Part shown: positions 5,327-63,998 of the stretch, one piece after another
How positions within the stretch are numbered: the first letter of the stretch is position 1
Layout: the number at the start of each line of letters is the position of its first letter
Assembly: GCA_045837725.1 (NCBI GenBank)
Contig: JBEWZL010000102.1
Span: 62,001-126,000 of the forward strand
Length of the DNA: 64,000 nucleotides
Source: Vermamoeba vermiformis
Taxonomy: Eukaryota
Direction of reading: 5' to 3'
Program-made: the position numbers and the translations under genes
The notes under the pieces: model-generated
What the model was told of the DNA's origin: nothing
Database searches by the model: none
The model's input: only the letters and a program-made list of their open reading frames with translations

Positions 5327-7188
5327 GAAAATTTCATAAGTAGGCTCGTAGAATAATATATTTAAATCCGTACCAGTAAAACTGCGACACTGTCACAGTT
5401 GACAAGGCGTGGCCTAAGTGACATCTTTTGGCACAAACTACGCACACCGTTGAGTGACCGCACGTGTGGCATTCAAAGCTATAGAAATGATGCATTAGCG
5501 TACAGTCATTGGAGGGAATATATTAAATTAATTAATATATATATTAAAAGATAGCACCTCTCTTGTTGTGCTGGGTTGAGTTGAGTGGCTGCAAAAGTGC
5601 ACATGTAACGCGACACAGCCACCGCACAATTTTTGATAATGACTTCTGTTGTATCACCTGGCTGATATAATATCTCGTAATTTTGTCTTTTCGGATAAAG
5701 CACAATATCAATTTTGTTCTCGGAAATTGAATTGCTGCGGGATAGTTCTTCGACGGTAAATTGCGTGTTTGAGCATTGACTTGGCATTGATAAACCTAAT
5801 AAGACCAATATGAATATGGACCCTTTCGCCTAATTGATTAATACTTTATCTGTCGTACCAGTTACTCCGTTTTTCTTAATCTGGTTATCAGTAATAAAGT
5901 CGATGTTAACGTCGTATCTCATCACAACTCCATGGCGCTTATTGTTCAAAATGATGTTTTTTGAGAGCCTTACTGTCGAATTCTCGAAGACCGCCAATCC
6001 GACAGCATTGTTCGTTAATTGATTTTCGAAGAATAAACATTCGCTATTTGGCTTCATAGTGATACCTCGTTCTTCATTTCCAGCGAAACGACATTTTTTT
6101 ATGATCGAAGTTGCGCTCGATTTGGTCAGGATAACTCCGCTCTTGTTTTTCATGAACGAACAACCTTCCAAAATCATCGACCTTTTGCATCCTGTTGCGC
6201 GAATTCCAGTGGCATTTTTCGCAAACACTAGTAATATACTATTAGTCGTAAGATAGATATTAATACCGAGTTTATGATACATACCACATCCGGAGGCATG
6301 AATTTCGCTATCTTTCGCGCTAAAAATTCCGACGTGCGAGTCGCGAAAACGACAATTCTTAATTGTTACTGTAGCCTCCCTAATTTTAATATTAATTTTT
6401 TATGTTCAACTTTGATTGATTGCTTCTGCTTACACTATAAACAAGGCCGAAGCAAACCTTGATTGAAATTCGCAATTCTCGATAGCGAAATTGAATTTTT
6501 GCAAAGAACAGGCTACACGACCTTCTTTTCCCTTCTTGCATGTCTCTATGGTTAAATTCTATTTATAAAAAGTTAGCTATCACTTCGTTCGTGAATTAAA
6601 GTATAATACTTTTATCGAAACAGTTCTTCCAGGGGCTTCTCCTTGAGGATCGAAGCGAAATATACTTTTAGAACTACTAATGAGTTTCGTTTGTTGGCTT
6701 TCTGGTTTTTGAGACCAAGGAGTGTCCCATAGCCCGCAGATGTCAACGTTAGGCAAAAGAATTATCGTCTCGCTTAATGAATACACCCCTGGGGCAAATA
6801 TCAGGTTCCACCTCATCACTTTTGATAGCTTCCATTTGTCTTTTATGTAGTTCATCGCTTGTTGAAGCGTCAGAAATTGGATCGACTTGAAAAAAATTCT
6901 CTTCCAATCTATAATTGCAATTATTAGCTCAAAAAATACTGCATTATCATGTAGTATTTTATAATAATTTATACCTGTTTCATCTGCGGATATACAAATT
7001 ATTTTTTGTTTTTCTTTGTGAATTCTGTTTCTCCAGAACCCAGGCGAATTGGACATCTCTTTTAATAAGTGGGATGTTCTATATAAGCGTACGAGACATG
7101 ACGAATGTGCATGGCTGATAACGCGCTCAATCAATTCCAACGGTAGATCGAGAAGCGAAAACACTGCGGCTTGCTTCGTATGATCCAT
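5264..7188 (-). CDS. FBXO11-like protein: F-box, CASH/PbH1 repeats and C-terminal UBR-type zinc finger (paralog B)
   Basis: F-box LLDLPLELIERVI; beta-helix repeats (GNEERGI..NNAVGLAV..NNKRHGV). Spliced C-terminus CTFAATQ..FECHTCGHSTVCVVCAKRCHLGH..FYCDCGAEPQCQAL; stop at 5264-5266. Confidence 0.8.
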
Positions 7189-7495
7189 ATAGCTATATAA
7201 CTATGACCTTTATGTTATGATGACTTGGTTAATTGTTGTATTCGGTTAAATGTAAGCTCGCGAATCGTTACAATTTGAGGAGTTTTTTCGATCGAAAACG
7301 CAAAAATGGCGCAAAAATCTCAAAACAATTGTATGGACTCAGTTGAAAGGTAGGTGGATTTATTAATTATCACTCGCTCCTATCAACCAACGAGCAATAA
7401 AAGTCGGTGCAACAACACGCTGGGATAATTTGTTTCTTTATTTACAAAAAATCACTAGTTGTGACCAAAAAATAACGCTATTAATACGACCGTTC

Positions 7496-19173: not shown

Positions 19174-19253
19174 CTGGAGTAAAACGATGGTCAGCCGTTG
19201 AGCAAAAAAGGAAGCAAACAAAGGAAGAGAGCCGAGCAAAGGCAAAAAACAAA

Positions 19254-19325
19254 TTCCGATACCGGGAGTCGAACCCGGGTTTCATGGGTGAGAGCCATGT
19301 GTGCTGCCGCCTACACCATATCGGA
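19254..19325 (-). tRNA. tRNA-Glu(CTC)
   Basis: Cloverleaf TCCGATA..CATGG-CTCTCAC-CCATG..GGTTCGACTCC..TATCGGA-A, followed by a T-run; identical to 24947-25018. Confidence 0.95.
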
Positions 19326-19769
19326 ATGGTTAAGCGTCGTTCCAACATCTTTATGCTCCCATCGTGTCGGCACCACTTTCAAGCTCTTTTCGCTCCCTTT
19401 GTTGCCCTCTAGTTCGTTATCTCAACGTGCTCTTTTGCCGCGATCGTTGCACGGTACTAGATTAACACTTCAGTTAAGATAACTAACCTTAGTTATGTTT
19501 TTAAACTACCAGTGTTAGTTCCTTTCAAACCTTGTCGTTCGACGAGGCTACGCCTTGAACTCATTGGGACGTATTGCGAACATTGTTTCTCAGCACCACG
19601 TGCGTTTCAGAGAAAGGTGTCAGAAAGTTACGCTCTATCATTTTTCGTTCCTTTTCGTAGGTGTCACCACAACTAACTACGTAAGCTACTTATTATTTGA
19701 TTAATTTTAGATTTTTTTAAGCTCAACTAATTGGTGCTTTCCGTCGTTCAGAGATCTGTAAAACAAATA

Positions 19770-23094: not shown

Positions 23095-23167
23095 TTCCGA
23101 TACCGGGAGTCGAACCCGGGGCCCCTGGGTGAAAACCAGAAATGTTAACCGCCTACACCATATCGGA
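23095..23167 (-). tRNA. tRNA-Glu(TTC)
   Basis: TCCGATA..TCTGG-TTTTCAC-CCAGG..GGTTCGACTCC..TATCGGA-A with a downstream T6 terminator. Confidence 0.95.
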
Positions 23168-23534: not shown

Positions 23535-25784
23535 ATGGAAGATATGCAATCGCCAACCAAGATAGCAACGAAAAAGAGGAAGCATGATGATATAGAGGAG
23601 GACACTGAAGAAACAAGTGCGAACGGAGGTGACATCGCGACCGCACCAGATTCACCAACTAAAAAAGCACTCAACATGATCGCAGCTTCATTTCATACAT
23701 TAAAAAAATTAGTGTGGTCCGATGGGGATAAAGACGAGGTAAGATTCGCCAGTTACTTTTTCTTTGCCCAAATCCACATCAACGATAAATTCAGAAGGTC
23801 TAATTTTCAGTCAACTTTTGAAAATTATTGAACGCATAAAATCCTTATTCAATCACATTGATGCAGTGCTGTCGTCAATTTCTTAGAATTTTATAAAGCA
23901 CAGAAGGCGTTCTGTGGATCGGATCCTACAGATCTACAAGCCATTTTTTGTATCTTTGTTGTTATTGCAAAATATTGTTTTATTTATTTCCTTAATCGCG
24001 AGTTTAAGAGTTAAAGACTGATTCTTTTCTTGGGGATTCAGGGATCTTCTCAAAATAATAATAATGTCGAGGCACACCCACCTCCTGCGAAGAAACAGAA
24101 GCGCGCTCATGCTACCGACGGAGCTAGCTTCATTACTTCTAGTCCACAAAAGGTTAAGAAAGTTACTCAGGTCCAGACAGGTAACTCCGAATCTTTTTAA
24201 TTTATCGGTCCCATTAAGGTCAATATTAATGTATACTTTTTATATTAGTCGATGTAAATACAGTTAAGACGACGATAATACCGCCTGGAGAGGACGATGA
24301 AAATAGTTTAAGTTCGAGCATGGAAGAAACATTATTCTCGCCTGGCTTTAAAGCAATTACACAAAGAAAAGGTAACTAGAGAATTTTTATTATAAATGCA
24401 CGATAAATAATAACGACGGTGAATTACAGAAACTGAAAAAGTTAAGGCGGTCACGAAGACGGAGTTACAATCAACAGAAACATTAGCAGACTCCATCGGC
24501 GACAACGAGGAAGAAAATAGCGAAGAAAGTTTTAATATATTGCAGCCAGAATATATTGACGCATTGAGATCATTTACACAAACTGGCTACATCGAGGTTG
24601 AAGAGGAAGAAGAAGAGGAGGAATTTGATTCGTACGTAATCATCTGAAGCTATGAATATGACAATCGTAGTACTAATAATATGACTTTGATAATAGATAC
24701 ACATTCATTAAGAGTCTACCGCCGTACAAGCCGCAAAAGTTTTCACAGTTAGCTCTGCCGCCGAAACAATCGCAAGCCAAAGTGACCCTGGTAAGTGATA
24801 GACATGAGATATTAGTAACGTGCAACGATCGCGGCAAAAGAGCACGTTGGGATAACGAACTAGAGGGCAACAAAGAGAAGCGAAAAGAGATGAAAGTGGT
24901 GAGGACACGATGGGAGCATAAAGATGTGAAAACGACGCTCAACCATTCCGATATGGTGTAGGCGGCAGCACACATGGCTCTCACCCATGAAACCCGGGTT
25001 CGACTCCCGGTATCGGAATTTGTTTTTTGCCTTTTTGCTCGGCTCTCTTCCTTTGTTGCTTCATTTTTTTAACTCCTTTTCTTTTTGCTCATTAACTGAC
25101 CAATGTTTTGTTTCAGGTTCTTGACTTGGATGAAACACTTGTTCATTGCAGTTTGGATCCGATTCCAAACCCAGATGTGACATTCGAAGTTCCTTTCGAT
25201 GGAGTGTCTTATGAAGTGCATGTTCGCAAACGACCTTTCTTTGAGCACTTCTTGGCTGAAGTGTCGCAGGTGTTTGAAGTGGTTGTCTTCACTGCATCAC
25301 AAAAGGTATGTGATTAGATCTCACGATTTCGCGCTGTTGTTCGTCCTGTGGTCTTTGCTCACGCCTTTGTTAGGTCTATGCTGATCGCCTATTGGACATC
25401 TTGGACCCTAAGCGAGAACACATTCATCACCGCATATTCAGAGACTCGTGCGTCATTGTCAGTGGTAACTATTTGAAGGATCTCAACGTCCTTGGTCGAG
25501 ATCTGTCCAAAGTCATTATCGTCGATAATTCTCCACACGTATTTGGCTATCAATTAGAGAACGGTATCCCCATCGAGACTTGGTTTGACGATCCGACAGA
25601 TCGAGAGCTGCCGAAGCTACTGCCATTCTTAAAGAAGCTTGTGGATGTCGATGATGTTAGGCCGCATATTAAGAGTGAATTCAAGCTCGAAGACAAAGTC
25701 AAGGCTGCTAAGTGGACTCAGCTCTACACATTCGAATACGAGTCAGACGGATCAGATTCGGATAATCCGGGAGGAGAAGAATGA
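23535..25784 (+). CDS. CTD small phosphatase-like 2 (SCP4/CTDSPL2-like), FCP/SCP HAD family
   Basis: [13 protein letters not shown]..[44 protein letters not shown] and [11 protein letters not shown]. Confidence 0.92.
24812..25393 (+). repeat. Source copy of the inverted duplication (partner 18898-19459)
   Basis: Direct comparison with the reverse complement of 18898-19459. Confidence 0.95.
24947..25018 (+). tRNA. tRNA-Glu(CTC), nested in intron 24791-25116 of the CTDSPL2-like gene
   Basis: Full cloverleaf with anticodon CTC, followed by TTTGTTTTTT. Confidence 0.95.
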
Positions 25785-33243: not shown

Positions 33244-35135
33244 TTAGTGGTTCAATAACGCCTCAAATACGGCTTGCAACGATCCATTATGAGAGTTCAA
33301 TAATTGAACGTTGACGGCTACATCCGTGAATCCAGCATCCAGAAGTTCGACCAATTGCGTCGAATAAGCAAAGTCAGCAGGCACCATATACTCCTCTTTA
33401 GAGACTTCTTGTTGGTGGTGCTCTTCAATCACAGGCGCAGAGGGCTCGCAGTGTACGGAGACTTGCATGCTGTGCTGTTCGTTGGTGCTCGAGACCACTA
33501 CAGTAGTGTTGTTATTAACAGCGTCGACATCAATAGTCACAGGCTGAGAGGCTGCGTATTGATCGACGTTGACGGAGTATTCTGATTGGTGCAATCGGTT
33601 CCACAAGTGTGGGAAGTACTCCTTGTACACGGGTGGCAATTCTGGCTTGCCTGCAGCTTGATTCTTATCTTCAGCGCTCATGAGTCTTCGTTCTTCTTGT
33701 TGGTCAATGATATTGCGCATTAAAGATGATTGCCAGCTGTTCGTCTCTTCAACTTGTCGATCTTGATCCACCGAGGAGTTGTTCATGTTGACATTGTTGT
33801 TGCTCTCGGCCATAGCCTCGTGCTCAGATTCATCTCCCAACAAGTGAGCACTCTCCTCTTCACGGTCTGAAGAGCTATCCAAGACCTCGTAGTCCACAGA
33901 GCCCTTCAACATGGTGAATTCATTGATCAACTGGTTGTCGGACGCAGACAAGTGCTCGAGTCCGTCGTTCGAAATCTCGATTTGAATAGCGTTGTTATTG
34001 TCTCGAGGACTATTCTTTGAGCTTCTTAAGTGCTTTCCAAGCTTGCTAATTTTGCTGAAATATTTCTCGATCGCCTTTTTGGATTTGCTGTGGTGCTTGA
34101 GGACTTTCTTCTCCCACTTCTGGAAATACTTCTTATTCGGAGCTTGTCCGATCTTTTTGAAGTATTTCTTCGAAGGCAGCAAGCCATATTTTTCAGGGAC
34201 TTTAACTTTCAGCAACATGTGGCTAGCTGGATGCACATCCGGAATTTGTTCGCACTTCTCGCACAAATCCTAAGTAACGAATCATTAGTAAACGATTATA
34301 TATCTCGTTATAAGGCTATACTTACATAGTCAACGCATTCAAAGCATTTGTAACGGATACCAAGGATTACATTATCGCACACGTGGCAGACGGCTTCATG
34401 ATGCGGCATTAAAGCATTGTTATTGTTAGGCGCTATAATGGCATCAATATTATTATCGGCCCTATTTTCAGGAATATTAGCGGGTTCTATCTTCATCTGT
34501 TGCTCGCGAAGCACGACATCCTCAATCTGGGCCATTGAACGAGGGCTGTGAGGGGCAGTAGCGGGTCCATCAACAATAGTAATCACTGTATATGTTGGTG
34601 GATCAACGACCATCCTATTTAAAATCATAAGAATACAAGAATAACGGATGAACTTCACTTGCGTCAGCAGAAACTATTCCATCCGGACGAAATTTGAAAT
34701 AATTAAGTGTAATATAAATAATATATGACATAATAATACGTAATTTACATACTCTTCGACGGCTACTGGCTTTTCTTCCGGATTTGCTTGGTGAAGACCA
34801 GTTCCGGTGAAATTTACATTATTGTTATTCGATTGGACTGGGCTTGCGCGAGTTACTTGTGGTGACCCAGAGGCATTAACAGATATACGTAATATTGGTG
34901 GAATTTTGGCCAATGAAAGCGTAATAGCGACTTTTAATTCTTCGTCAGAGTTGATGCTGAGCAATCTGCCGTCTTCGTGTTGATATTGAACCTCACAATT
35001 ATCACACTTTAATATTCTAGCCATATTCTCTTTCAAGTCCGCAAGGGTCACGTTCTTGTTAATGCTGATGCGACGCACATCTTCGCTACCAGCCAATCTG
35101 AACTTGACCGTGATCTGACCAGCCTCGTATTGCAT
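33244..35135 (-). CDS. p62/NBR1-like autophagy receptor (PB1, ZZ, LIR-like, UBA)
   Basis: PB1 VKFRL..DVRR..YQHEDG..INSDEEL; ZZ CHVCD..RYKCFECVDY|DLCEKCE..H..H; DYEVL; UBA QLVELLDAGFTDVAVNVQLL. Confidence 0.88.
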
Positions 35136-35517
35136 TCTATTGATATGATCGCAGAAATAATATGAGGTCTTGTGGTGCAGCTGTTTAAAAGAAAGGTTGA
35201 AACAAAGAAAACTCGCACAAAAGCAAAAATTCACGAAAAGAGGGAGGCAATTTCAGGCCCAATTCAGTACACGATCAAATTAACTGCTTTTGTTTACTCT
35301 GGGACCACTCTGATAATAACGATAGGACCCTGAGCTCAGTCGGTCTATCGTAACAATCGGTTTTGTTGCACCGTGCCCATCCGTAAACATTTTGCCGTAG
35401 TAACGCTTAGGATTGGCATTAAACCATCCTATTTCGCTTTGTGTGTTTCGTCTTGTGGAGTCGGGTGATGTAAATTGTAATCTTGGCTTTGACGTTTCAA
35501 ATTTACAAGCGCCAGAA

Positions 35518-37809
35518 ATGGAACACAACAAATCTGGGCAACTGCGCCGATCTTGGGACGACTTACCGCAAGACGCGCTATTCTTTATTTTTTCGTACTT
35601 GGAGCCAGTAGAATTAGCGCATATAGTGTCGAGTGTTTGCAGATCATGGAACGCGGTAGCGAATCACAACGAGATTTGGCGCCCGAAGTGTATAGAAATG
35701 TGTTTGCACAATCCCCTTAATTCTAGCAATGGATTACTATTCAAGGAGCAATATACTGCCTGGTATAAAGAGTTTTCACGTTACACAGATGTCTATCCCA
35801 CGATCAAGCCGCTGTTCGATCGCTTTCAAACTTGGGCAAGAGGACATATCCCAAGAATGCTAAAGACGTTTGAACCTGGCGCTACTGAAAGCCGTTTAGC
35901 TAAAGAAGAAGGACAAATTGCAAGCGATTTTAGCTTTCCGAAAGGTAAAAAAATTTACGAAAATTAATAATCAATAGCTATGTTCTGGCTAATACTAATT
36001 ATAATATATGCAATGATATTCTTATTGACACGAAAAATTCAAATTTATTGGATCGTTAGTAACAGATTTCTTCTAGATGTACGTTGTTGGCTTCGGCTGT
36101 CAGATGGTCAGCGCATGGATAGAGACGAAGATATTGGACTTGGCATGTTTGGTGAGTTATCCCGCCAATTTAATATCGCTCCAGCCAGATTTCCTTTGCT
36201 TGATCAAGGGACAGTTTCGCCAAAAGTCATTTTTGAAAATTTTTCCTCGCATTTGACGCTAATATAATATAATTATATTATACAAATTTATAATATTTAA
36301 TTTAGCCTAATAGTTCATTCCGATGTTTTATTTTTCGGATCGCGTGACACGTTAGATCTACAAACACTAATTGGGCTTGTATAGGCGGCTACTCTTTCTA
36401 CGATCACAAAGTATCATTGCACTTGTTGAATAGCGAACAAATTACCTCATTTCATAGCGTAAGTTCTCTTTATTAATGCTAAAACGATCCTCCAAGTCAC
36501 GAGTCAACACTTGTCCTCGGACAAAAAATTTGCCGTGCTGTCCAGTTCTAACAAATTTTAAACGCACGAGCCATTATATATTCATGTTAATATATATACA
36601 ATACTATTTTGTATCGATCAGCAATGGGACGTTTGATTAATTAATTTTTGTAGATCTTGCAACAAAAACTCGGCTCCAAACAGTGGATCAAGTGTGTAGT
36701 GCCGTTAGTCACTTCATTTAACAGTCGCAAAGTATATTTCATCGTCACCAAAGATTTGCCTAACGCTCCAAAGTACGTCATTCCTCATACTAAACTCAAA
36801 TTTACGTGCTTCAGTTCTTCTCGAATATTCCGCATAATATTGTTATAATAATAGCTATTAGAATTGATATAATATGTGCATATTATTAACGATTCGATTA
36901 TTTTTTAATTAGGGGCTCTTTGGTCGTACCAACAATGGGCTATAGAAGTTACATGCCGTTTGCCGAGTCATTTACCGGTACGCATTTACTAAATTCAAAA
37001 ATGTTAATAACAATTGATATTTATGGATCATATTGTCATATATTGGTTATAGCCTAATTTGGAATAGATAGTTGAATTTAACAATAATATTTTGCAGCGT
37101 TATTGGAAGATCATTTGGATCGATTAGAAAGCGGAGATTATAAGATTGAAGACGGCGAGATACAAATATTTCCTTTTTTGTCCGTCCCTGAAGCCGTCAC
37201 GCGCGGTGTTCGGATCAAGGCCAGTCCGCTGCTGATCTCTGAACGAACTCAACCCGAGACTGGAGAGTTCTTATGGGCCTATAGAATATTCATGTCTATG
37301 GACGAAGATCAAGACGCAAATGATAGTTGTCAATTAGTCTCGTAAGTAACATAATAATATTCATTAACAGATCTATTTATTTTTTTGATGCTCAATTTTA
37401 ATGCTTATATTTAGGCGCCATTGGATTATTACGGATGGCAATGGACATGTAGAGAATGTTCAGGGTCCTGGAGTCGTTGGTTTATATCCAAAAGTAAGTG
37501 TAGCAGATGCAGTCAGTTGCCGTTACACGAGTTTTCCTTATTTAGAAAATTTATCTAATTCAACTGTAGATGACTCCTGGAGCATTCTTCTTCTATGAAA
37601 GCTGTTGTCCGTTGAGCACGGTAAGCGGATCCATGGAAGGAACGTTCAAGATGCGCCGAAAAGACGGATTTGAGTTCGACGCGCAAGTTCCAAAGTTTGA
37701 ATTCAAGATTCCAAGCGTAATTCGATCAAAGAGGAAGGTAGATGCAATGAGCAATCAAGATAGTGGCTCTAATAATAACCCAAGTGCAGCTAAGAAACAA
37801 AAATTATAG
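35518..37809 (+). CDS. F-box, SMI1/KNR4-like and ApaG domain protein (FBXO3/SKIP16-like)
   Basis: F-box WDDLPQDALFFIFSYL; PGATE; ApaG AYRI..CQLVS|RHWIITDGNG..VQGPGVVGLYP..YESC..GSMEG. Confidence 0.88.
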
Positions 37810-45286: not shown

Positions 45287-46441
45287 CTACATGACTTCAA
45301 CCAAATGATGGTCAAACTTGATGTGGTGCAAGTTAAATACGGTGCCCCATGCAATCAACATCTGTATAATTATATGCGTTAATATAATTACATTGCAGAA
45401 GCGCGTGCCGAACATTAAAGAGGAAAAATTTTCCGATCGGAAAAACAAGCTTACCTGAGCGAGGTAGTACGTCGTTAAAATCATGCCGGAAGCATAAGGA
45501 ATCTCCTTAAAGAACATATCCCAAGCTAGGATGGAGTCTGCAAATAATTTGACGGTTAGAAAGTCGTTCTACCACATCCGACAGATCCGCGACCTCGTGC
45601 TTACCTGAAATTGCAAATAAGAACGCTCCAACAGCTACATAAGGATATTCCCGTCCAGCAGCAAGGTCAAAATTAATTGCCGTGACAAGCATGCCTATAG
45701 AGTTGAGTTAGTTAAGCTCGATCACGACGCTTCAGAGAAAAGGATCAGAACTTACAAGCAAGAATAATGCTGTAGATTAGGATTGGCACGAGGAACTTGC
45801 GACCTTTAGGCTTGCTTCTGAACGAATGAGTCAACACAGCAACATACGCGAGCAACACAGTCATAATTCCTCCGAGCAGGTATGGATGCATGACCCACGG
45901 AACCATCAACGTGAATCCAACGAAATATAAGACATGTCCAATTAAGAACGCGATCAAGCCCTAAATAAAAAATCAGAGGTTAATATTCTGAAAGTCTAAA
46001 CATTTTCGATCGCAAGGCTCATAATATTAGCCTTATACATGATAATTTGTAGTAAAACTGGCAATAATATGACCAAATGGAAACAATGGAAATCAATTTA
46101 ACGGGTAGACGTGAGGGTTCACTGAGTTTTCGGGGATTCGTCTCCAAGTTTAAAAAATAAATTCAGGGCTTTACCTGCAAGAAAAGCGTCGGGAATAATA
46201 GCAAAATATCTCCAATAAGTCCAAATATCAGGCCCGATACAATGAAAGTGTAGAGGAAAGTGTGGAAATTAACATTGCTGAAGAGGCGCATGATCAGCTC
46301 TATATTGAAGAGAGGCGAGAGCAAGATCATGATAGGGAGTGGCTTCGTATAGTAGTATGCCTTGGGGTAATAGACCTTTGAGAAGATCGACAGTGCGCCA
46401 GTGGGAATGATCAGAGCCAACAGATTAGTCCACTCAAACAT
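45287..46441 (-). CDS. YhhN/TMEM86 lysoplasmalogenase-like membrane protein
   Basis: TKPLP, GLIFGLIGDILL, GLIAFLIGHVLY, GAFLFAISD and TYYLAQMLIA motifs. Confidence 0.88.
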
Positions 46442-46911: not shown

Positions 46912-49900
46912 GAGGACAGCAGGAAATTCTGCACGACGAATTGTCTCGTCAGGCGACAGAGCCGCTTTTAGAAGGACGTTAACCTTTTCTGGTCCGGGTA
47001 TTCGGGCCCACATTAATTTTTATCTACCGTCCGAGGAGAGAAGTCCAGAATTTCGTAATCCTTTTGCTTCGTACTCCGTTACACTAATTAAAAGGTGAAA
47101 GAAGCACCGCAGAGCGCTGGGCTAGTACGTCATTGTCCATCCGCGCCTGGTCAACGCAATGAAAGTACGCGATGCTCGTCAACTTTGGTCTTTGTATAGT
47201 TACTAACATCCCCTTCACTTAGGTTGGATCCAGCAATAAGCAAAGAGAATTAAACCGCTGTTTAATATGGTTATAATTGCAAATCTCCCGTAATCTCCAA
47301 AACAATCTTTGCCAAGATTTCAACGCTCCACGTGGCAGTTCGGAGGTTTGTATTAATCTATATATTGCGGTTACTTAACGGAGTATTAATTTTAAATAAT
47401 TTTGTAACAGATCAACACACGACAAGAGTTGGTACAATTATTTTAGTATTATTCAATTACTCAAACGGTTGGTGATGGAGCTTCATCAATATATTGAAAC
47501 GGTAAGCCATGAAAAACCAATCTTGTATCTATATTGTGTCACGTATTAATATTTTCTGATGAATATAGAAGCTACTATCGTCATTCGACTACGTGCACGA
47601 AATATTGCGGATCAACCTCAGCTCGGTCGAGACGGAAAATAAACTTCTCGTGCAATTGACGCAGTTTTACGAGAAGCATGATCGCTTGAATGATTTCATG
47701 CGGTGGTCAGTCATACAAGAAGTAGAGAATACTGGTAAGAACAACGACAAAAGATCACACTTTTGAATTGTCAAACCCCGATCTAACGAGCTTCGGATAG
47801 AAATCCCCGATGATTTGTTTCGCAAGGGCAGCATCGCCACGGGAGTGATGTTTCACTTCCTCTTTAGTGACTTGGGCAAGATCTACTTGAAGAATACAAT
47901 CTTGCCGACGATTCGACAAGTCGAAGAACTGACTGAAGATATGGTATGTATGCAGCATTGACACGATCTAAGAGATGCATGACATTTCAAAACCAATCTC
48001 GGAGTCTAGGGGAGGATTTGCCTCAATCATTGCCGACAATTCCATTCTGTTTCTAAATTTGGAAACATCTTAATTCTACCTCGACTCTCAGTCGAGAGTA
48101 TTTGAAGAGCGATACTAACGTAGCGATATATGATAGGAAGAAGACGATGATTTCAGTCCAAGTGTGATGCGCGACATTCTTAACGTGGCAGCGGAGTTTT
48201 TAACCACGTTGAACGATGAGTTGGCATCGTTCCCTCTGTAAGTTGCCAATAACTGCTTGGATATAATCCTTGGGGATACTATTTTAAGAATATTTATTGC
48301 CATTGCTCTTGGATTATTTAAACCTTTCCTAATGTGGATTCACTCCAGGCACATGCGAGAAGGTTTCTTAATTCTCGAGAAAGAGGTGGCACGCAAGTTT
48401 CCTTCGTTTGACAACGTCGTTGGCTCGGTGTTGTTTCTTCGTTTCATCTCGCCAACCATCCTTCAACCGCAAATCTACGAAATTTCGGACGAGCCATCCA
48501 ACCCGGCTTCTCTTCGTGCCCTGATCCTAATATGCAAAATAATGCAAGCCATCGTCAACAAGAGCCAAGTGGTATTGCCAGATGCTTCGGATGGTATCAA
48601 CGAGCAAATCCATCGCTTCATGGTTGCGCATGCAAAGCCGATGAGTTCCTTTTGCAGGAGATTAACGGTAAGATATTTTTCGAGATATACTATTGCGCCG
48701 CTATGGCTTAAAACAATTATCGAAGCTATTCCTGGTCCCTAAATTGCTTTTTCCTAATTTGGAAAGTAGGATTCCCAAGAAATCAACTTTTGTAAGAAAG
48801 TTATCGCAGCATCCGTGCGAGCTCAAGTTTTTTCCGATGAAGAGAAACGAGCAGCTATCAATAGCTTGATGGAGTTCCTTGACGAGAATGAAATGGAAGT
48901 CCCTACCACAGCGAGGCGGCCGAGATCGTCGTCGTTCCGGATAAGTTCTAGCGACCTGCTTACTTCGAAGTCGCTGCCAGTCAAACCTCTGTCCGCATCA
49001 GCCAGCTTCATTAGCGACACAGACGACACCGATACCGAAGATTCTTTCGAAAGTACTTCTTCGCGAAGTCGCAGTAACAGCATAGCGGACAAAAAGAAGC
49101 TCCGGAGATTTAGTGTGGGCTCAGAAGGGTCCAGTAGATCTGAGCCTGGTGCTCCCCGCGTCGTTGGAAGAATGCCCAAGTTCGTCCGAGAACGCGAAGT
49201 AGTTTCCTTAGATGGCGAAAAAGTCAAGCTTGAAACAATCTTTAAAGACAAGACTGTAGTATTAGTTTTGCTAAGACACTTCGGGTGGTAAGTACAATAA
49301 GTTGCCTATTCTTAAAAAGTACTAACGAGAACGTGTTGTAGATTGTTGTGTCGCAGATCGGCTTCCGAATTGACTCAGATCGAGCCGGTCTTGAATTCAT
49401 TAGGGGTAGAGTTAGTGGCTATTGGTTCAGGCACTGCTGCCATGGCTGCAGATTTCAAACAGGATTTCAACTTCACTGGTCAGATCTACGTGGATGAAGA
49501 ACGTTTAGTCTACGAAGATCTGCGGTGCAAGCGAGGCTGGAAGAATGCCTTGTTCAACTCAAACACATTAAAGTCTATCGTGTCGGCTTGGGAGAAAGGC
49601 TATCGACAAGGAAAGAAACAAGGAGACATGCTGTAAGTACTACTTAGAATCGCCAGATCTGCGTCGTGCCATAACTAACCTCGTTCTCGATTAGTCAATT
49701 AGGTGGTTGCTTCGTGATTAAGTACGACAAGGTCTACATGGAGCACTTGGATCGGTACGCAGGAGATTTTCCGAAAGTTTCAAAAATTCTGAAGGCCTGC
49801 GGTGCTGACGATGAGATGATACAAAAAGTCAGAATTAAAACACGAAAAGAGATGAAAAAAGAAGAAAAAGAAGAACGTAAAGCCAAGAAATTAGAATACA

Positions 49901-49947
49901 AACGAGCAAAAGAAGCGTTGAAGGCCGAACTCGCGGCAAAGAAGTAG
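46912..49947 (+). CDS. RasGAP fused to a PRXL2/SelU(AhpC-TSA)-like domain with an in-frame TGA (UxxC); probable selenoprotein. Exons upstream of 47569 are uncertain
   Basis: RasGAP arginine finger DLFRKGSIAT and FLRFISP. Intron 48668-48769 joins in frame to an S-rich linker and VLVLLRHFG-TG|A-LLCR (intron 49288-49341), then IYVDEER..Y and GDML|QLGG. Stop at 49945-49947. Confidence 0.88.
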
Positions 49948-50100
49948 ACCTTCAATCGCACTCATTGACATCGCTGTAACGGCACATGACATGACACAAC
50001 AAGTATGGTTCATCACTCTCCCGTTGTGGTTTGTAACGACTACCCCTGTTGCAAAATCGCTTCGTGGATGCAGCGGTGGATCGGGATTCAGAACAGAGAG

Positions 50101-50154
50101 ATGAAGACTACCAAACTAACTCCTACAACCTAACGGAGCTTTGTGTAGTCTGAA
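50101..50154 (+). promoter_or_regulatory. SECIS element, type II, in the 3' UTR
   Basis: ATGAA-GACTACCAAA-CTAA-CTCC-(11 nt)-GGAG-C-TTTGTGTAGTC-TGAA: tandem GA core, ~10-bp helix II, unpaired AA and an apical mini-stem. Confidence 0.88.
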
Positions 50155-50575
50155 CGACAAAGCGTGCACAATACAATATTTGTGCCGCTTGGTGCTGTCC
50201 TGTGTCTTGATCTATGGACCAGTGAAGTTGTGCACGTCGTGTGAGTCTGTGAATGCGATGCCGATGAACTTCATTGTAATATAATGTATATAAATATGTT
50301 GTATTTTTAATGCCACAAACATTTAGCCAGATGCGGAAAGTAAGGCTGTTAAGAGATCGAACAGCTTTGCAAAAATTTTATTGACAGCCATCAAATGACT
50401 ACGTTAATAAAGGTGTATAACCTAGTATAGTATACTGTCCAAAGAAGATTTTGGTGCCCGAGAAGGATTTTGGAATCGGAATATCAGTTGTTTTGAATGT
50501 CGAGAAGAGATGCACAACAACGCACAAATTAGTATTCAATAGCATATACTCGGTTCCCTGTCAATAGTTGAAAAT

Positions 50576-55340: not shown

Positions 55341-56574
55341 TTATTCATATTTGGAATTAGTAACTCTTACAATAAAACCTGATCGAATTCTATTAATCAA
55401 TTTGATGCTATTTACAACTGGATCTAAGCCTGGGTAACGGATCCTAGAGAAGATCTCGAGCCACAATTCTTTAGGCAGACCCATTGGCGGCTCATTACTC
55501 CAAGCGATATTATGTACTAACATGGCTATCTTATATAACATATCTGCCTGCAAATCTCGATTTCTTTTCAACTGTTTCAAGATCTGAATCGTTATTTTTG
55601 TACTGCTGAATATCTCTAAGTGCATAATTAACTTCTAATACGTTCTCTATAGCACTACAAAACTTAATATACGTATATATGTCATCAGGAATGTCAGCTG
55701 AGTATAGATCTACGAATGTCAATGAACTGTTGAGTCTTAATCCGGTGCAGATCAGATCCACTTCATTTTCTTCGCGCGGATTATAACAATTTGATAGCCA
55801 TAGTTTCCTTAATGTATTATTTACAGCCAACATGTCTTTCAGCGCTGTCAAACCATTGACACCGAGATCTGAATTATCGCTGAGGACTAGTGTTCTGAGA
55901 CTAGTGTTTGTTTTCAGTGAATTGCAAAGTGCAATTATTCCGCTCGATTGAATCTGATTTTGATCGAGATCGAGCTGCGTCAAGGTCTGATTATGTTTCA
56001 ATCCTTCAGCGAGGTACTTGCAGATCTGATGGTCAATATTGCAGTTGATTAAATTAAGCGTTGTTATATTCTTCTTAGTCTCTAATATTTCTTGTAAAAT
56101 TTTTGCGCCTTTTGCGTCGATCTGAACCACGCCTGATAAAATAAAACTTTCAAGCGAATTATTCTCTTTCACGGAACTAAATAGCACGTGAATCTCGTCT
56201 ATATTTAAAGGAGTGCTCCTTATTAATAGTGTGCGTATTGTTGTGTTTGATTTTAAGGCTTGAAAAATTTTCTTGTGCAGATCCGTTCCGTCTGGATCAT
56301 TTGAATCCAGTGTGAGATTAGGGACTCGCATAGTACTAATCATATACGCAAATAGATCTGCCTCTTTGATCGGTACTATATTTTTGACTAGTGCCAGCTC
56401 TTGCAGTGCATTGGTGTTTCTGAATCCGTTGGTGAGGGATCTGATGATTTCCGGTGTGAATGTGCTTTGGTTGATTTCAAGTGCTCTAATAAAATCTCCT
56501 TTTAGAGATATACAGAGTGATGCGGCGACATCTGCTGTAATTTTGTGGTGATAGGCTGATCGGCCGAGATCCAT
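55341..56574 (-). CDS. RNI-like leucine-rich-repeat protein with a C-terminal LPxELW (F-box/BC-box-like) motif; apparent +1 frameshift at about 55597
   Basis: Repeats of the type LKxNxTLxxLxLxxN; shifted tail LKRNRD..GLPKELWLEIFSRI; no introns seen. Confidence 0.7.
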
Positions 56575-56977
56575 GAAGATATTTTTCGTGTTAATTCTAA
56601 AATTCAAATCAATTCGAGAATAATATGACAAAATCATATAGCAATGCAGATGTCATATTAATAGTGTTAATAATTAGTAAGAAATGTCAAACAGAAATTG
56701 ATCCATATCCTTTAGGACGTCTAAATGGAATTTACCTGATTATAAGCCCTCACGTTCAATTTTGATTATAGATCAATGATTCTCCGTAAATTAATAATAC
56801 TAAAATTAGTTTTGTGGTTGTTAGAAGACGAAAGAACAACGAGGAAAATTTATCTGTCACCAGCACAACAGAAGTCTTTCAGCGATTGCAACCATGTGCC
56901 AACAATAATCACATTTTGCGACATTATATTATAACTTATAACTCTCTTCAAGTTGCGGAGTTTATTAAGGTTTCAGT

Positions 56978-59129
56978 TCAAGTTTTTTGCACCTTTTTTT
57001 GAAGGAATGCGTAACACTCCTTTTTGTGCATCATAGTGTACGTACGAACGTCTTGAGGGCATCCATTGTCATATAAATATTCTAAACATTTAACCGAATC
57101 TCTTTGGACAGCTGCGTACCAAGTCTCTTTGCTCCATCCGCTGCCATTTTCGTGCGCGTACTTCAAAATTTTTAGATTACCATTGCTTGCTGCTGCAGTG
57201 CACTCGTGATGGCTCCAAGGACACCCATTTTCACGCAAATATTTCAAGCACTTCAAATGAGAGGCACCCCGGCCATTAGCCGCTGACCGGCAGGCATTTG
57301 AGGTCCATGGCACGCCGTACTTGTGCGCTATTTTCATGCACATGAGGTGTCCATGGGAAGCAGCCACCGAGTGCACGAGAGAGCTGTATCCACAGCCGTT
57401 CTTGAGCGCGTACTCGAGGATATCTGCTCGGTCAAATTCGGCTGCTAACATCGTCACGCTATCATCCCACTCGAAGCCCATTTCGTGAAGATATTTTAAC
57501 GCGTCTAATGCACCTGTTCTAGCCGCTGCACTCAGAATCGCTGGCTCGCACTCGCCTAGTCCCACAGCATTAATAAGGCCCCTTAAAATTATCGTGGTCG
57601 TGTTGTACTTACATCCGAGATCAAGGAGGTACTTCAACATTTCAACGTCGTTGTTCGACACAGCCACATTGCACAGTGAGACGTCGCTAGTGTCAAGCTC
57701 GTAGCCGCATTCGAGAATGTATTTCAAGCACTGCAAGTTCTGGTATTGTACTGCTTTGAATGCCATCGTTTGCGATGGTAAAGACGACGTCGTCATCGAA
57801 ATTGTTGTCGTAAACATCATCGTAATCGTCAATCTTTCCGTCCCATCGAAAGCCATTCTCGTGCAAGTACTTCAATATCTCTAAGTTGCCAGCAGCGTTT
57901 AAGCACGCGATGTTTGTGCTGGGCTTGGGACACCCAGCTTCGAGCAAATATTTTATCATTTGCACATCGCCGAGTTGAGCTGCATTGTCGTATTCTTTGC
58001 CACACCATTTAGCCCCGTGTTCTCGCAAGAGCCTATTAGATTTGTTAACATAGGTGCGGACAGAGGGTCGCTCCAAGTGTGACACTTACTTGACACATCC
58101 GATGTCGCCGGAGCTCACTGCATCCTCTATTGGTGACATTGAGCCATCTGTGTCTATATGCGCGGTATTGCCGTTCAGCAGCGCGTATTTGACGCACTCC
58201 AAGCTGCCACTCCGAGCGGCATTGTTCATCGTTTCACCCCACTCACAGCCGTTCTCGTGGGCAAATTTCAAACAGTCCAAGTGCCCTCCAAGCGCTGCCA
58301 TTTCACAGCTGACATTCAAGACGTATTTTGCTTCGTAAAGATATTTCAAGCACTCCAAATTACCGCCTGCAGCAGCTGCGTTGCAAAGACGAGCTGTCCA
58401 TGTAATTTATCGGGCAGCCATTGGCCAACGCGTACTTCAAACAGTCAAGACTCCATGCTGCTGCCTCTCTTAATAGTAGTGAGTTCCATGGGCAGCCATT
58501 CTCGTGCAAATACTTCAAGATCTCGAGGTGGTTGTGACGAGCCGCAGCTTCCGTAGCGAGTTCGTCCCAAGGAAATTCGTTCTCGTGCAAATATTTTAGG
58601 CACTCAAGGTGACCGTTGGCAGCTGCATTTGAGCATGCGAGACTGTCAAAGTCGCAGTCGTTGTCGTCTAGAAACTTGATCGCTTCGATCTGACCCTTGC
58701 GAGCAGCAGCAGCGATAGTTGTAGCGTCCCATTCCATTCCAAGAGCACGGCAATATTGTAAGCACGATATTGCGCCCATTTCTGCGAAATACTGCATTAT
58801 ACGGCCAATTGGCTTTTTTGAAGTTGATAGTTTTGGATTGCAGATCTTAAAAATGTGCTTGTTTGCTGTTCGTAGCAACAGTACGTCATATACAACAAGA
58901 TCGTCTAATATATGTGTCCATACGTCGGTTGGTAAATCTAGCAATGTTAAATCCTACAACGAAACGTCAGTTCCATCCAGAAAAAATAAAGAAAATTACA
59001 AATTAATGTGGATCATCACAGTGGAAGTGATTTTAATGGTAGGTATATTACATTAATATTCTTATTTTTATGCAAGAATGGATATTAAATTACTGGCCAG
59101 TAAATTGCGACAGAACTTACTCCTTCCAT
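56978..59129 (-). CDS. F-box plus ankyrin-like repeats of the AAxxGHLECLKYLHENGCPW type; two apparent +1 frameshifts
   Basis: MEG|DLTLLDLPTDVWTHIL followed by many repeats. Real GT-AG intron at 58014-58089; frame breaks near 58405 and 57780. Confidence 0.75.
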
Positions 59130-63650: not shown

Positions 63651-63998
63651 GACTGAGCCAGGAGTAGTCTGAATTGAGTTACGGCCACAGGACTTGTGGT
63701 CCTGCACACCGCCTTGCGTATTGAACTTAACTTAGTAAGCCACTGTAGCGTGTTCCAGCAGAAGTTGCGCGACTAACCATCACTCGCAGACCCGTCGCTG
63801 CTGGGAAGGTTCCCAACACGAGAAGCCCCCGAGGTCTCGCGGATCGAACGCCGCGCAACCATGACCATTTCTGGTTCTACTAGTGTCCCCTCTAGGAGAC
63901 TCCCTCCAAGGGAATACGGCTCCTCAGACCTTCCCAAACACGTGTGTAATGCGCGAGTATTCGTATGTGAGTGTCTAAACACAAGCTCCGGCCCAGTC
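63651..63998 (-). ncRNA. Nuclear RNase P RNA
   Basis: Minus strand has CR-I GGGAAGGTCTGAG, CR-V AACTCAATTCAGACTACTC (P4 pairing GTCTGA/TCAGAC), TGGAACA and AGTTCAAT. P1 is GACTGGGCCGGAG/CTCCTGGCTCAGTC, followed by a T5 Pol III terminator. Confidence 0.93.

Follow-up and report, generated by a model that had tools for sequence, protein, structure and literature searches.

A candidate selenoprotein gene of Vermamoeba vermiformis joining a RasGAP domain to a PRXL2-type redox domain

The known members of the SELENOU/PRXL2 family (SELENOU1/PRXL2A, SELENOU2/PRXL2C and SELENOU3/PRXL2B) are small single-domain proteins. They have a thioredoxin fold and carry either selenocysteine (Sec, U) or cysteine in the same column, forming a U-x-x-C or a C-x-x-C motif. 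Sec forms are found among fishes and birds, in some fungi and in other eukaryotes (10.1101/2025.05.29.656587; 10.1101/314781), and the fungal genes have a selenocysteine insertion sequence (SECIS) in the 3' untranslated region (UTR), 40–420 nt past the stop codon (10.1101/314781). Here, we analysed a stretch of 64,000 nucleotides of Vermamoeba vermiformis (assembly GCA_045837725.1, contig JBEWZL010000102.1, positions 62,001 to 126,000 of the forward strand), hereafter the window, in which a domain with this fold and motif appears as the C-terminal module of a Ras GTPase-activating protein (RasGAP), in a clade of protist multidomain proteins. Judging from the sequence, we think it probable that a single gene at 47475–49947 (+ strand) encodes a RasGAP domain, a linker and a PRXL2/SelenoU-type domain, and that its one in-frame UGA is read as Sec. 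We infer the insertion of Sec, the use of the GTAAGT donor that would assemble the UGA codon, and the function of the product from the features described below.

We built the exon model from three-frame translations and a script joining the exons by coordinate. The eight exons give a frame of 1,818 nt and 605 codons that ends in TAG and contains exactly one internal stop, a TGA at codon 425. The region is eukaryotic in character (G+C of about 40%), with short introns, GTAAGT-type donors and TACTAAC-like branch sites. All seven introns (54–193 nt) have GTAAG or GTATG donors and TAG or CAG acceptors. Clean GT-AG splicing, with junctions at 48667/48770 and 49287/49342, had been proposed in an initial annotation made from the letters alone, and our model has the same junctions and GT-YAG introns throughout.

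The 5' end of the gene is a prediction that lies outside the transcript contigs: exon 1 (47475–47501) is tentative and starts at the first in-frame ATG (47475, MELHQYIET) before a GTAAGC donor. Exons 2 (47569–47734) and 4 (48137–48237) would encode the N-terminal part of the RasGAP region and the middle of the domain; they were placed by open frame and splice sites and have no Pfam match of their own. Between them, exon 3 (47801–47943) carries a putative arginine-finger motif (DDLFRKGS, Arg codon 47821–47823). The RasGAP core is in exon 5 (48349–48667), with the FLR motif at 48434–48442 and the conserved Lys of ...LICKIMQ.... After intron 5 (48668–48769, 102 nt) comes exon 6 (48770–49287), which encodes the end of the RasGAP, a linker rich in Ser, Asp and Thr, and the first thioredoxin-fold strands (...VVSLDGEKVKLETIFKDKTVVLVLLRHFG), and which ends in TG. 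Intron 6 (49288–49341, 54 nt, GTAAGT...TACTAAC...TAG) would then split in phase 2 the TGA codon (49286–49287 and 49342) of the predicted Sec, which is followed by LLC (Cys codon TGT, 49349–49351). The core of the PRXL2/AhpC-TSA_2 domain is in exon 7 (49342–49632), and its end (QLGG..AGD) is in exon 8 (49695–49947), together with a Lys/Glu-rich tail and the stop TAG (49945–49947). The donors of introns 6 and 7 are the identical octamer GTAAGTAC. The spliced product reads ...LLRHFG, TG/A, LLCRR, and then 181 open codons including QIYVDEERLVY and GDML/QLGG. Hence, the S/D-rich linker, the RHFG-[TGA]-LLC-R motif and the roughly 180 open codons with IYVD..Y and GD..QLGG that were first noticed in the raw sequence are all present in the joined frame, with the linker encoded by exon 6 and the two parts of the TGA brought together by removal of intron 6.

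By its profile and structure-database matches, the N-terminal domain is a RasGAP of the p120GAP/neurofibromin type. The Pfam searches were made on single exons. Exon 5 matched RasGAP (PF00616) with an E-value of 4e-10 and 40.3 bits (cut-off 28.3) over profile positions 141–207 of 207. In the PDB the same exon matched p120GAP/RASA1 (8e-7) and neurofibromin (2e-6), the matches to p120GAP and NF1 spanning 8e-7 to 4e-6. The FLR motif with the second arginine (FLRFISPTILQP) aligns to FLRLICPAILNP of p120GAP, and the P..L.P segment that follows and a later conserved Lys also align. The FLR motif is present, as had been annotated, and for the two profiles that had been suggested as a check, exon 5 and exon 7 (see below) each scored over the cut-off on their own. 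The LFR of DDLFRKGS in exon 3 lies at the place expected of an arginine finger, within a weak match, and is likely to be one. The architecture differs from that of p120GAP and neurofibromin: the RasGAP part has only about 290 residues, SH2, SH3, PH, C2 and Sec14 modules were not found, and there is a redox domain instead. The GAP role is predicted from sequence.

Exon 7 matched Pfam AhpC-TSA_2 (PF13911) with an E-value of 2.6e-11 and 44.3 bits (cut-off 27), and matched prostamide/PGF synthase (PRXL2B) in the PDB with an E-value of 5e-5. The Cys of LLC aligns to Cys 47 of chain 9us9_A, which places the UGA, three residues earlier, at the first Cys of the CxxC of prostamide/PGF synthase. We take this first Cys to be the catalytic Cys44. 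The motif of the window (VVLVLLRHFG-U-LLC-RR) follows the first thioredoxin-fold strands and is common to the homologues.

An exhaustive HMMER search with exon 7 returned 202 homologues at E ≤ 1e-3, and we aligned the best 150 of these to the domain of the window. The TGA column is occupied by Cys in 54 of the 150 (RHFGC/RQFGC...C) and by Trp in two whose motif is otherwise perfect (P0005, 61% identical, and P0147). A further 79 are open reading frames (ORFs) that start past the column: 26 begin with the residue directly behind it and six with the one after that. The remaining 15 could not be placed. Starts directly behind the column, as in these 26, are expected of gene callers that meet an in-frame stop. 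The public copies of the gene itself are likewise fragments, unnamed or called 'hypothetical protein' (the P0003 cluster, P0159, P0166), which either start at LLC or LC or end in RHFGW; the metagenome ORF fragments that are 95% identical to the exon 7 domain are of the first kind.

TGA occurs in the same column in bacteria. HFG-TGA-MFC-RE was found in 55 species-representative genomes, and at all 55 loci the frame is open before and after the TGA (medians of 65 codons upstream and 136 downstream). These RHFG-U-MFC-RE proteins of the AhpC-TSA_2 family differ from the product described here in being single-domain proteins of about 180–200 residues that would rely on bacterial Sec decoding. The bacterial TGA genes span Anaerolineales, Acidobacteriota, Myxococcota, Gemmatimonadota and others, and many public bacterial ORFs of about 135 residues begin at a Met right after the TGA of this motif. 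The pattern L-R-H-F-G-TGA-x-x-C-R-R was present in 64 metagenome contigs, 39 of which encode relatives by tblastn. A metagenome scan with a closer family alignment matched 266 stretches, none of which was a relative, so that the contigs from which P0003 and P0005 derive are absent from the collection scanned. Cys or TGA at this position in orthologs had been named as a check in the initial annotation; among homologues, Cys is seen in 54 of the best 150, and TGA in the 55 bacterial loci and one eukaryote-like contig (L118, described below).

The two homologues with Trp in the column are what one would expect if the code were reassigned and UGA were an ordinary Trp or Cys codon. We regard this as extremely improbable. 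The gene uses TGG three times, TGY seven times and TGA once. Within the window, freeing TGA yields more ORFs of at least 150 residues than freeing TAG (74 vs 44), which is no more than the frequencies of the two trinucleotides predict (2,366 vs 1,526). The Trp at the catalytic Cys is probably better explained by gene callers reading TGA as W.

The evidence for one polypeptide comes from the frame of exon 6 and from RNA-derived sequence. The 172 codons of exon 6 form one uninterrupted frame that runs from the tail of the RasGAP through the S/D/T-rich linker to ...VVLVLLRHFG, and the strands encoded at its end match those in the upstream halves of the bacterial proteins (e.g., ...PVVLVFLRHFG). 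P0167, a relative that is 84% identical in exon 6, keeps the same ORF and ends in ...LLRHFGW. We examined four of the 13 listed runs: X1, the metatranscriptome X3, and X11 and X13 (raw RNA-seq of a related organism). The shares of all holders are small (0.05–0.17), and the runs carry no information on expression level or habitat. A 351 nt contig of X1, about 97% identical, joins 48666 to 48769 (a cut one base further is equally good) across a GT..AG intron, with 85 nt on its shorter side. Hence, in sequence derived from RNA, intron 5 has been removed and the RasGAP exon 5 joined to exon 6, as had been proposed for the junction 48667/48770. The X1 contigs show no differences in exon 5. All eight listed coding differences of X1 are synonymous third positions, six of six in exon 6, before the TGA, and two of two in exon 8, after it. 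The contigs of X1 and X3 cover exon 8 and the 3' UTR up to 50310. X11 contributed five reads, of which three lie on the A-rich 49837–49869 with poly-A loose ends, and X13 contributed one.

This bears on a reading in which the RasGAP and the PRXL2-like protein are made separately, the latter from an internal promoter or start, and a fusion polypeptide does not exist. The stretch 49035–49713 has no cover by transcript contigs, and in many relatives the redox domain is not fused to another, both of which would fit such an arrangement. Yet the tail of the RasGAP and the initial strands of the redox domain lie in the same exon and in one stop-free frame, an RNA-derived contig connects exons 5 and 6, and the only in-frame ATG past the linker sits behind the U-x-x-C motif. 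We therefore consider two products very unlikely.

The UGA depends on the choice of donor at the end of exon 6. Use of the GTAAGT donor predicts the exon 6/7 junction ...TTCGGGTG/ATTGTTGTGT. If the main mRNA used instead an upstream donor (GG/GTGGTA, exon end 49284), the product would read RHFG-LLCRR, with no UGA and a one-cysteine domain without selenium. Paired with the same acceptor, that donor keeps the frame and would give ...TTCGG/ATTGTTG. None of the listed joints or contigs decides between the two, and the single X13 read, which starts at about 49341 and runs into unlike sequence, fits the acceptor and both donors. Nevertheless, GTGGTA is poor beside the perfect GTAAGT, the seven donors of the gene are all GTAAG or GTATG, and the product would be one residue short in the G-[C/U]-x-x-C motif that is kept in the 54 Cys homologues. 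The 84% identical relative also conserves ...GGG TGG TAA, which is the GTAAG donor. These observations make use of the upstream donor in the main mRNA quite unlikely.

Downstream of the stop, the 3' UTR contains a structured block at 50046–50214 (+ strand), in which a 5' hairpin (50046–50076) precedes a three-way junction closed by a long helix. The 176 nt at 50040–50215 have a minimum free energy of -62.6 kcal/mol (z of -4.68, with none of 200 shuffles as stable), and the centroid structure is the same as the minimum free energy structure. An interrupted helix of 18 bp (50077–50096/50195–50214) closes the junction around a SECIS-like hairpin and a second hairpin (50157–50193). The SECIS-like hairpin is of type II, lies at 50101–50154 (+ strand), about 155 nt past the stop, and has AUGA at 50101–50104 and UGAA at 50151–50154. 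Its helices pair 50105–50111 with 50145–50151 and, past a one-base bulge, 50112–50115 with 50140–50143. The apex has an unpaired CUAA with the AA at 50118–50119, and a mini-stem of 4 bp (50120–50123/50135–50138) with a loop of 11 nt. On its 5' side the junction is canonical, with the helix, the four bases AGAG and then AUGA. The hairpin fits the published SECIS core consensus UGAN/KGAW (PMC3753652).

The X3 contigs have seven differences in 49948–50024 (77 nt) and none in 50025–50247 (223 nt). By our own arithmetic, the chance that all seven would land in the first 77 of 300 nt under random placement is about 7e-5. The sole listed difference of X1 inside the block is at 50088, an unpaired base. 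Our own loose scan, combining a pattern with a fold, found five SECIS shapes in 128 kb (both strands), so that the chance of meeting one within about 400 nt after this stop is roughly 1–2%. The same scan picked out a second SECIS-shaped hairpin at 46242–46308 (+ strand; ATGA...GA, helix of 11 bp), which is probably a chance occurrence because there is no coding frame upstream of it on this strand. We also considered a C/D box small RNA and rejected it: only the archaeal sR15 and sR17 matched, with about 10 bits against cut-offs of 36–40, and the interior is a stable hairpin. The likeness to archaeal C/D small RNAs is due to the shared kink-turn sequence GAUGA...CUGA.

If the UGA were an ordinary stop, the product would be a 424-residue RasGAP ending in a non-functional stub of the redox domain, and exons 7 and 8 would be the untranslated remnant of a decaying fusion. 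There is no direct sign of read-through, and Rfam gives no SECIS match in the 3' UTR, as such a remnant would lead one to expect. The sequence past the UGA is nevertheless conserved as coding sequence. The frame stays open for the 181 codons to the TAG, the Pfam domain straddles the TGA, and exon 7 alone keeps its 44.3 bits for AhpC-TSA_2. Strains that differ by about 9–13% in the adjacent 77 nt of UTR are 93–95% identical in the protein of exon 7, and the two listed differences in exon 8 are both synonymous. Furthermore, the UGA falls exactly in the Cys/Sec column and the UTR block is conserved. An ordinary stop is thus unlikely, and translation through the UGA remains the reading we favour.

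To place the redox domain among its relatives, we inferred a maximum-likelihood tree of 44 domains (animal PRXL2 was not among them). The domain of the window falls in a starred clade (95/88) that comprises 21 multidomain proteins of eukaryote type, and its nearest relative there is P0008, which has Cys (89/84, not starred). The eukaryote-like metagenome contig L118 lies in a different branch of the clade, where its sister is a Cys form (97/87), and the bacterial Sec and Cys forms make up a separate starred clade. The tree indicates that Sec and Cys alternate repeatedly in the PRXL2-type family. Such alternation is known for SELENOU (10.1101/2025.05.29.656587; 10.1101/314781).

L118 (positions 1–1162, - strand) has a frame of 314 codons with LLRHFG-TGA-LLCRR, i.e., the motif of the window, and matches AhpC-TSA_2 at 3.5e-20. 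Its 3' UTR scores 27.3 bits with Rfam SECIS_1 (E of 0.0015, under the gathering score of 35), and the element is of type II, with AUGA, a helix of 10 bp, AAAA and a mini-stem of 4 bp. L118 differs from the gene described here in lacking a GAP domain and in the contiguous basal helix of its SECIS, which Rfam scores. Its N-terminus has no Pfam match, and a PH domain is present in the Cys cluster that is its sister (P0168). Hence, L118 is apparently an unannotated Sec member of a PH-PRXL2 group. In a search for further eukaryotic SECIS elements, L118 was the only one among nine loci to have one.

The nearest named relatives are from Amoebozoa. Twelve Pfam-verified proteins pair AhpC-TSA_2 with Rap_GAP (P0017, P0022, P0025, P0026, P0028, P0059, P0062, P0093, P0097, P0107, P0115 and P0133), and various members of this set have in addition PH, DEP and RGS together, a protein kinase or KHA. 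The named ones are from EukProt transcriptomes of the amoebozoans Soliformovum irregulare, Cavostelium apophysatum and Protostelium nocturnum, and the architecture is also seen in metagenome proteins. Like the product described here, these proteins have a redox domain of the RHFG-C-x-x-C-R type within a Ras-family GAP and belong to the same starred clade. In contrast to it, all have Cys and not Sec, and their GAP domain is a Rap_GAP placed C-terminal to the redox domain. The Rap_GAP fold differs from that of RasGAP. Judging by its domain associations, the PRXL2-type domain recurs as a module in signalling proteins.

The fusion with RasGAP had been put forward as possibly undescribed. In agreement with this, we found no other RasGAP-PRXL2 protein, and no paper on a RasGAP-PRXL2 fusion or on a PRXL2-RapGAP architecture in a literature search whose scope excluded supplements and subscription journals. 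The novelty is nonetheless narrower than supposed, PRXL2 domains with RapGAP, PH, DEP and RGS being already in public protein sets. In the Protein Atlas we found the family names RasGAP and AhpC-TSA_2 only. Word-index searches with exons 7 and 5 returned nothing among longer proteins, and one with exon 6 returned only two close fragments. BLASTP of the spliced N-terminus against 165 fetched proteins matched only exon 6 of the window itself, and when exon 5 was compared with the N-terminal parts of P0018, P0016 and P0021 the best E-value was an unconvincing 0.007, over 30 residues. Hence, P0016, P0018 and P0021 have no demonstrable RasGAP.

Several observations weigh against a Sec-containing RasGAP-PRXL2 protein. 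The first concerns its rarity: no second protein combining RasGAP with AhpC-TSA_2 came out of the word-index homology searches, which are weak evidence, or of local BLASTP on the 165 proteins. At the N-terminal end, exon 3 matched RasGAP with an E-value of 0.019 and 15.3 bits (profile positions 16–55), under the cut-off, and in a PDB search exon 3 alone gave spurious repeat proteins only and no RasGAP. Of the annotated arginine finger, the motif LFRKGS therefore stands, and the domain match around it falls short. The junction 49287/49342, which makes the TGA, is crossed by none of the listed joints or contigs of X1, X3, X11 and X13. In the 3' UTR, the Rfam SECIS models gave no match at E ≤ 10 on 701, 111 or 71 nt, and the library that misses this hairpin does score that of L118. 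The basal helix is not contiguous, being interrupted by a hairpin of 37 nt that separates the closing helix from the 3' GA, and the SECIS-like hairpin taken alone is of ordinary stability (z of -0.5). In one X1 contig, 12 of the 16 differences are listed; the remaining four are near its end, perhaps in 50094–50123 (its 3' end is at 50123, inside the hairpin). Finally, the window contains no tRNA-Sec; the only RNA genes in it are that for RNase P RNA and three for tRNA-Glu.

The claim of the initial annotation that a SECIS is present has accordingly to be qualified. The core, the AA and the mini-stem are there, and the element is one that Rfam does not score and whose basal helix is interrupted. 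Much the same holds for the single polypeptide with a UGA-encoded residue: the join of exons 5 and 6, the continuous frame of exon 6 and the Cys/TGA column speak for it, and the TGA junction unspanned by contigs and the non-canonical SECIS speak against it.

Elsewhere in the window, a nuclear RNase P RNA gene lies at 63652–63997 (- strand; Rfam RF00009, 103.9 bits, E of 9e-29, full model length), and the tRNA-Glu genes lie within 6 kb of each other at 19253–19326 (-), 23095–23167 (-) and 24946–25019 (+), two with CTC and one with TTC. The segment 42001–44000 has a GC skew of -0.206 and an AT skew of +0.195, far outside the rest of the window, and its ORFs have no Pfam match. Neighbouring ORFs at 5833–6399 (-), 6583–7200 (-), 34677–35252 (-), 35404–35964 (+) and 55534–58953 (-) matched Beta_helix/NosD, F-box-like, PB1, F-box, LRR_6 and ankyrin repeats. 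This gene content is typical of a eukaryote rich in protein-interaction modules.

We propose the following mechanism. The product would have about 605 residues and consist of the RasGAP, a disordered Ser/Asp-rich linker, the PRXL2/SelenoU-type thioredoxin-fold domain and the Lys/Glu-rich tail. Splicing would create the UGA (TG/A) as the first redox residue of U-x-x-C, and the UGA would be decoded as Sec by means of the SECIS-like kink-turn hairpin inside the conserved three-way junction. The U-x-x-C pair would then be expected to cycle between the selenol/thiol and selenenylsulfide states, perhaps by reaction with peroxide or a disulfide. Provided that the protein exists, it is conceivable, and we suggest it tentatively, that formation of the selenenylsulfide switches or relocates the GAP, so that oxidants tune Ras-GTP, along the lines of the candidate selenium/peroxide sensor for Ras signalling put forward in the initial annotation. 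Alternatively, the domain may be a tethered reductase or peroxidase whose targets are Ras itself or membrane lipids close by. We think a role as redox switch or in targeting the most likely, since the same domain is repeatedly fused to Ras-family GAPs. A more general proposal, which we consider doubtful at this stage, is that PRXL2-type domains serve amoeboid protists as a regulatory module, so far undescribed, of proteins that inactivate Ras and Rap, and that the one described here has been upgraded with Sec to give a selenenylsulfide-switched RasGAP whose SECIS kink-turn is set in a three-way junction.

To our knowledge, selenoproteins are nearly all small redox enzymes. If our interpretation is correct, this gene would be a rare case of Sec within a signalling protein, here a regulator of Ras. 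It also illustrates how such proteins vanish from databases, split into fragments at the UGA. If the 3' UTR element works, the range of accepted eukaryotic SECIS shapes would be wider and would include one that current search models miss. Oxidants are known to influence Ras signalling, and the RasGAP fusion, together with the dozen PRXL2-RapGAP fusions, would represent a natural, genetically encoded link between oxidants and Ras signalling.

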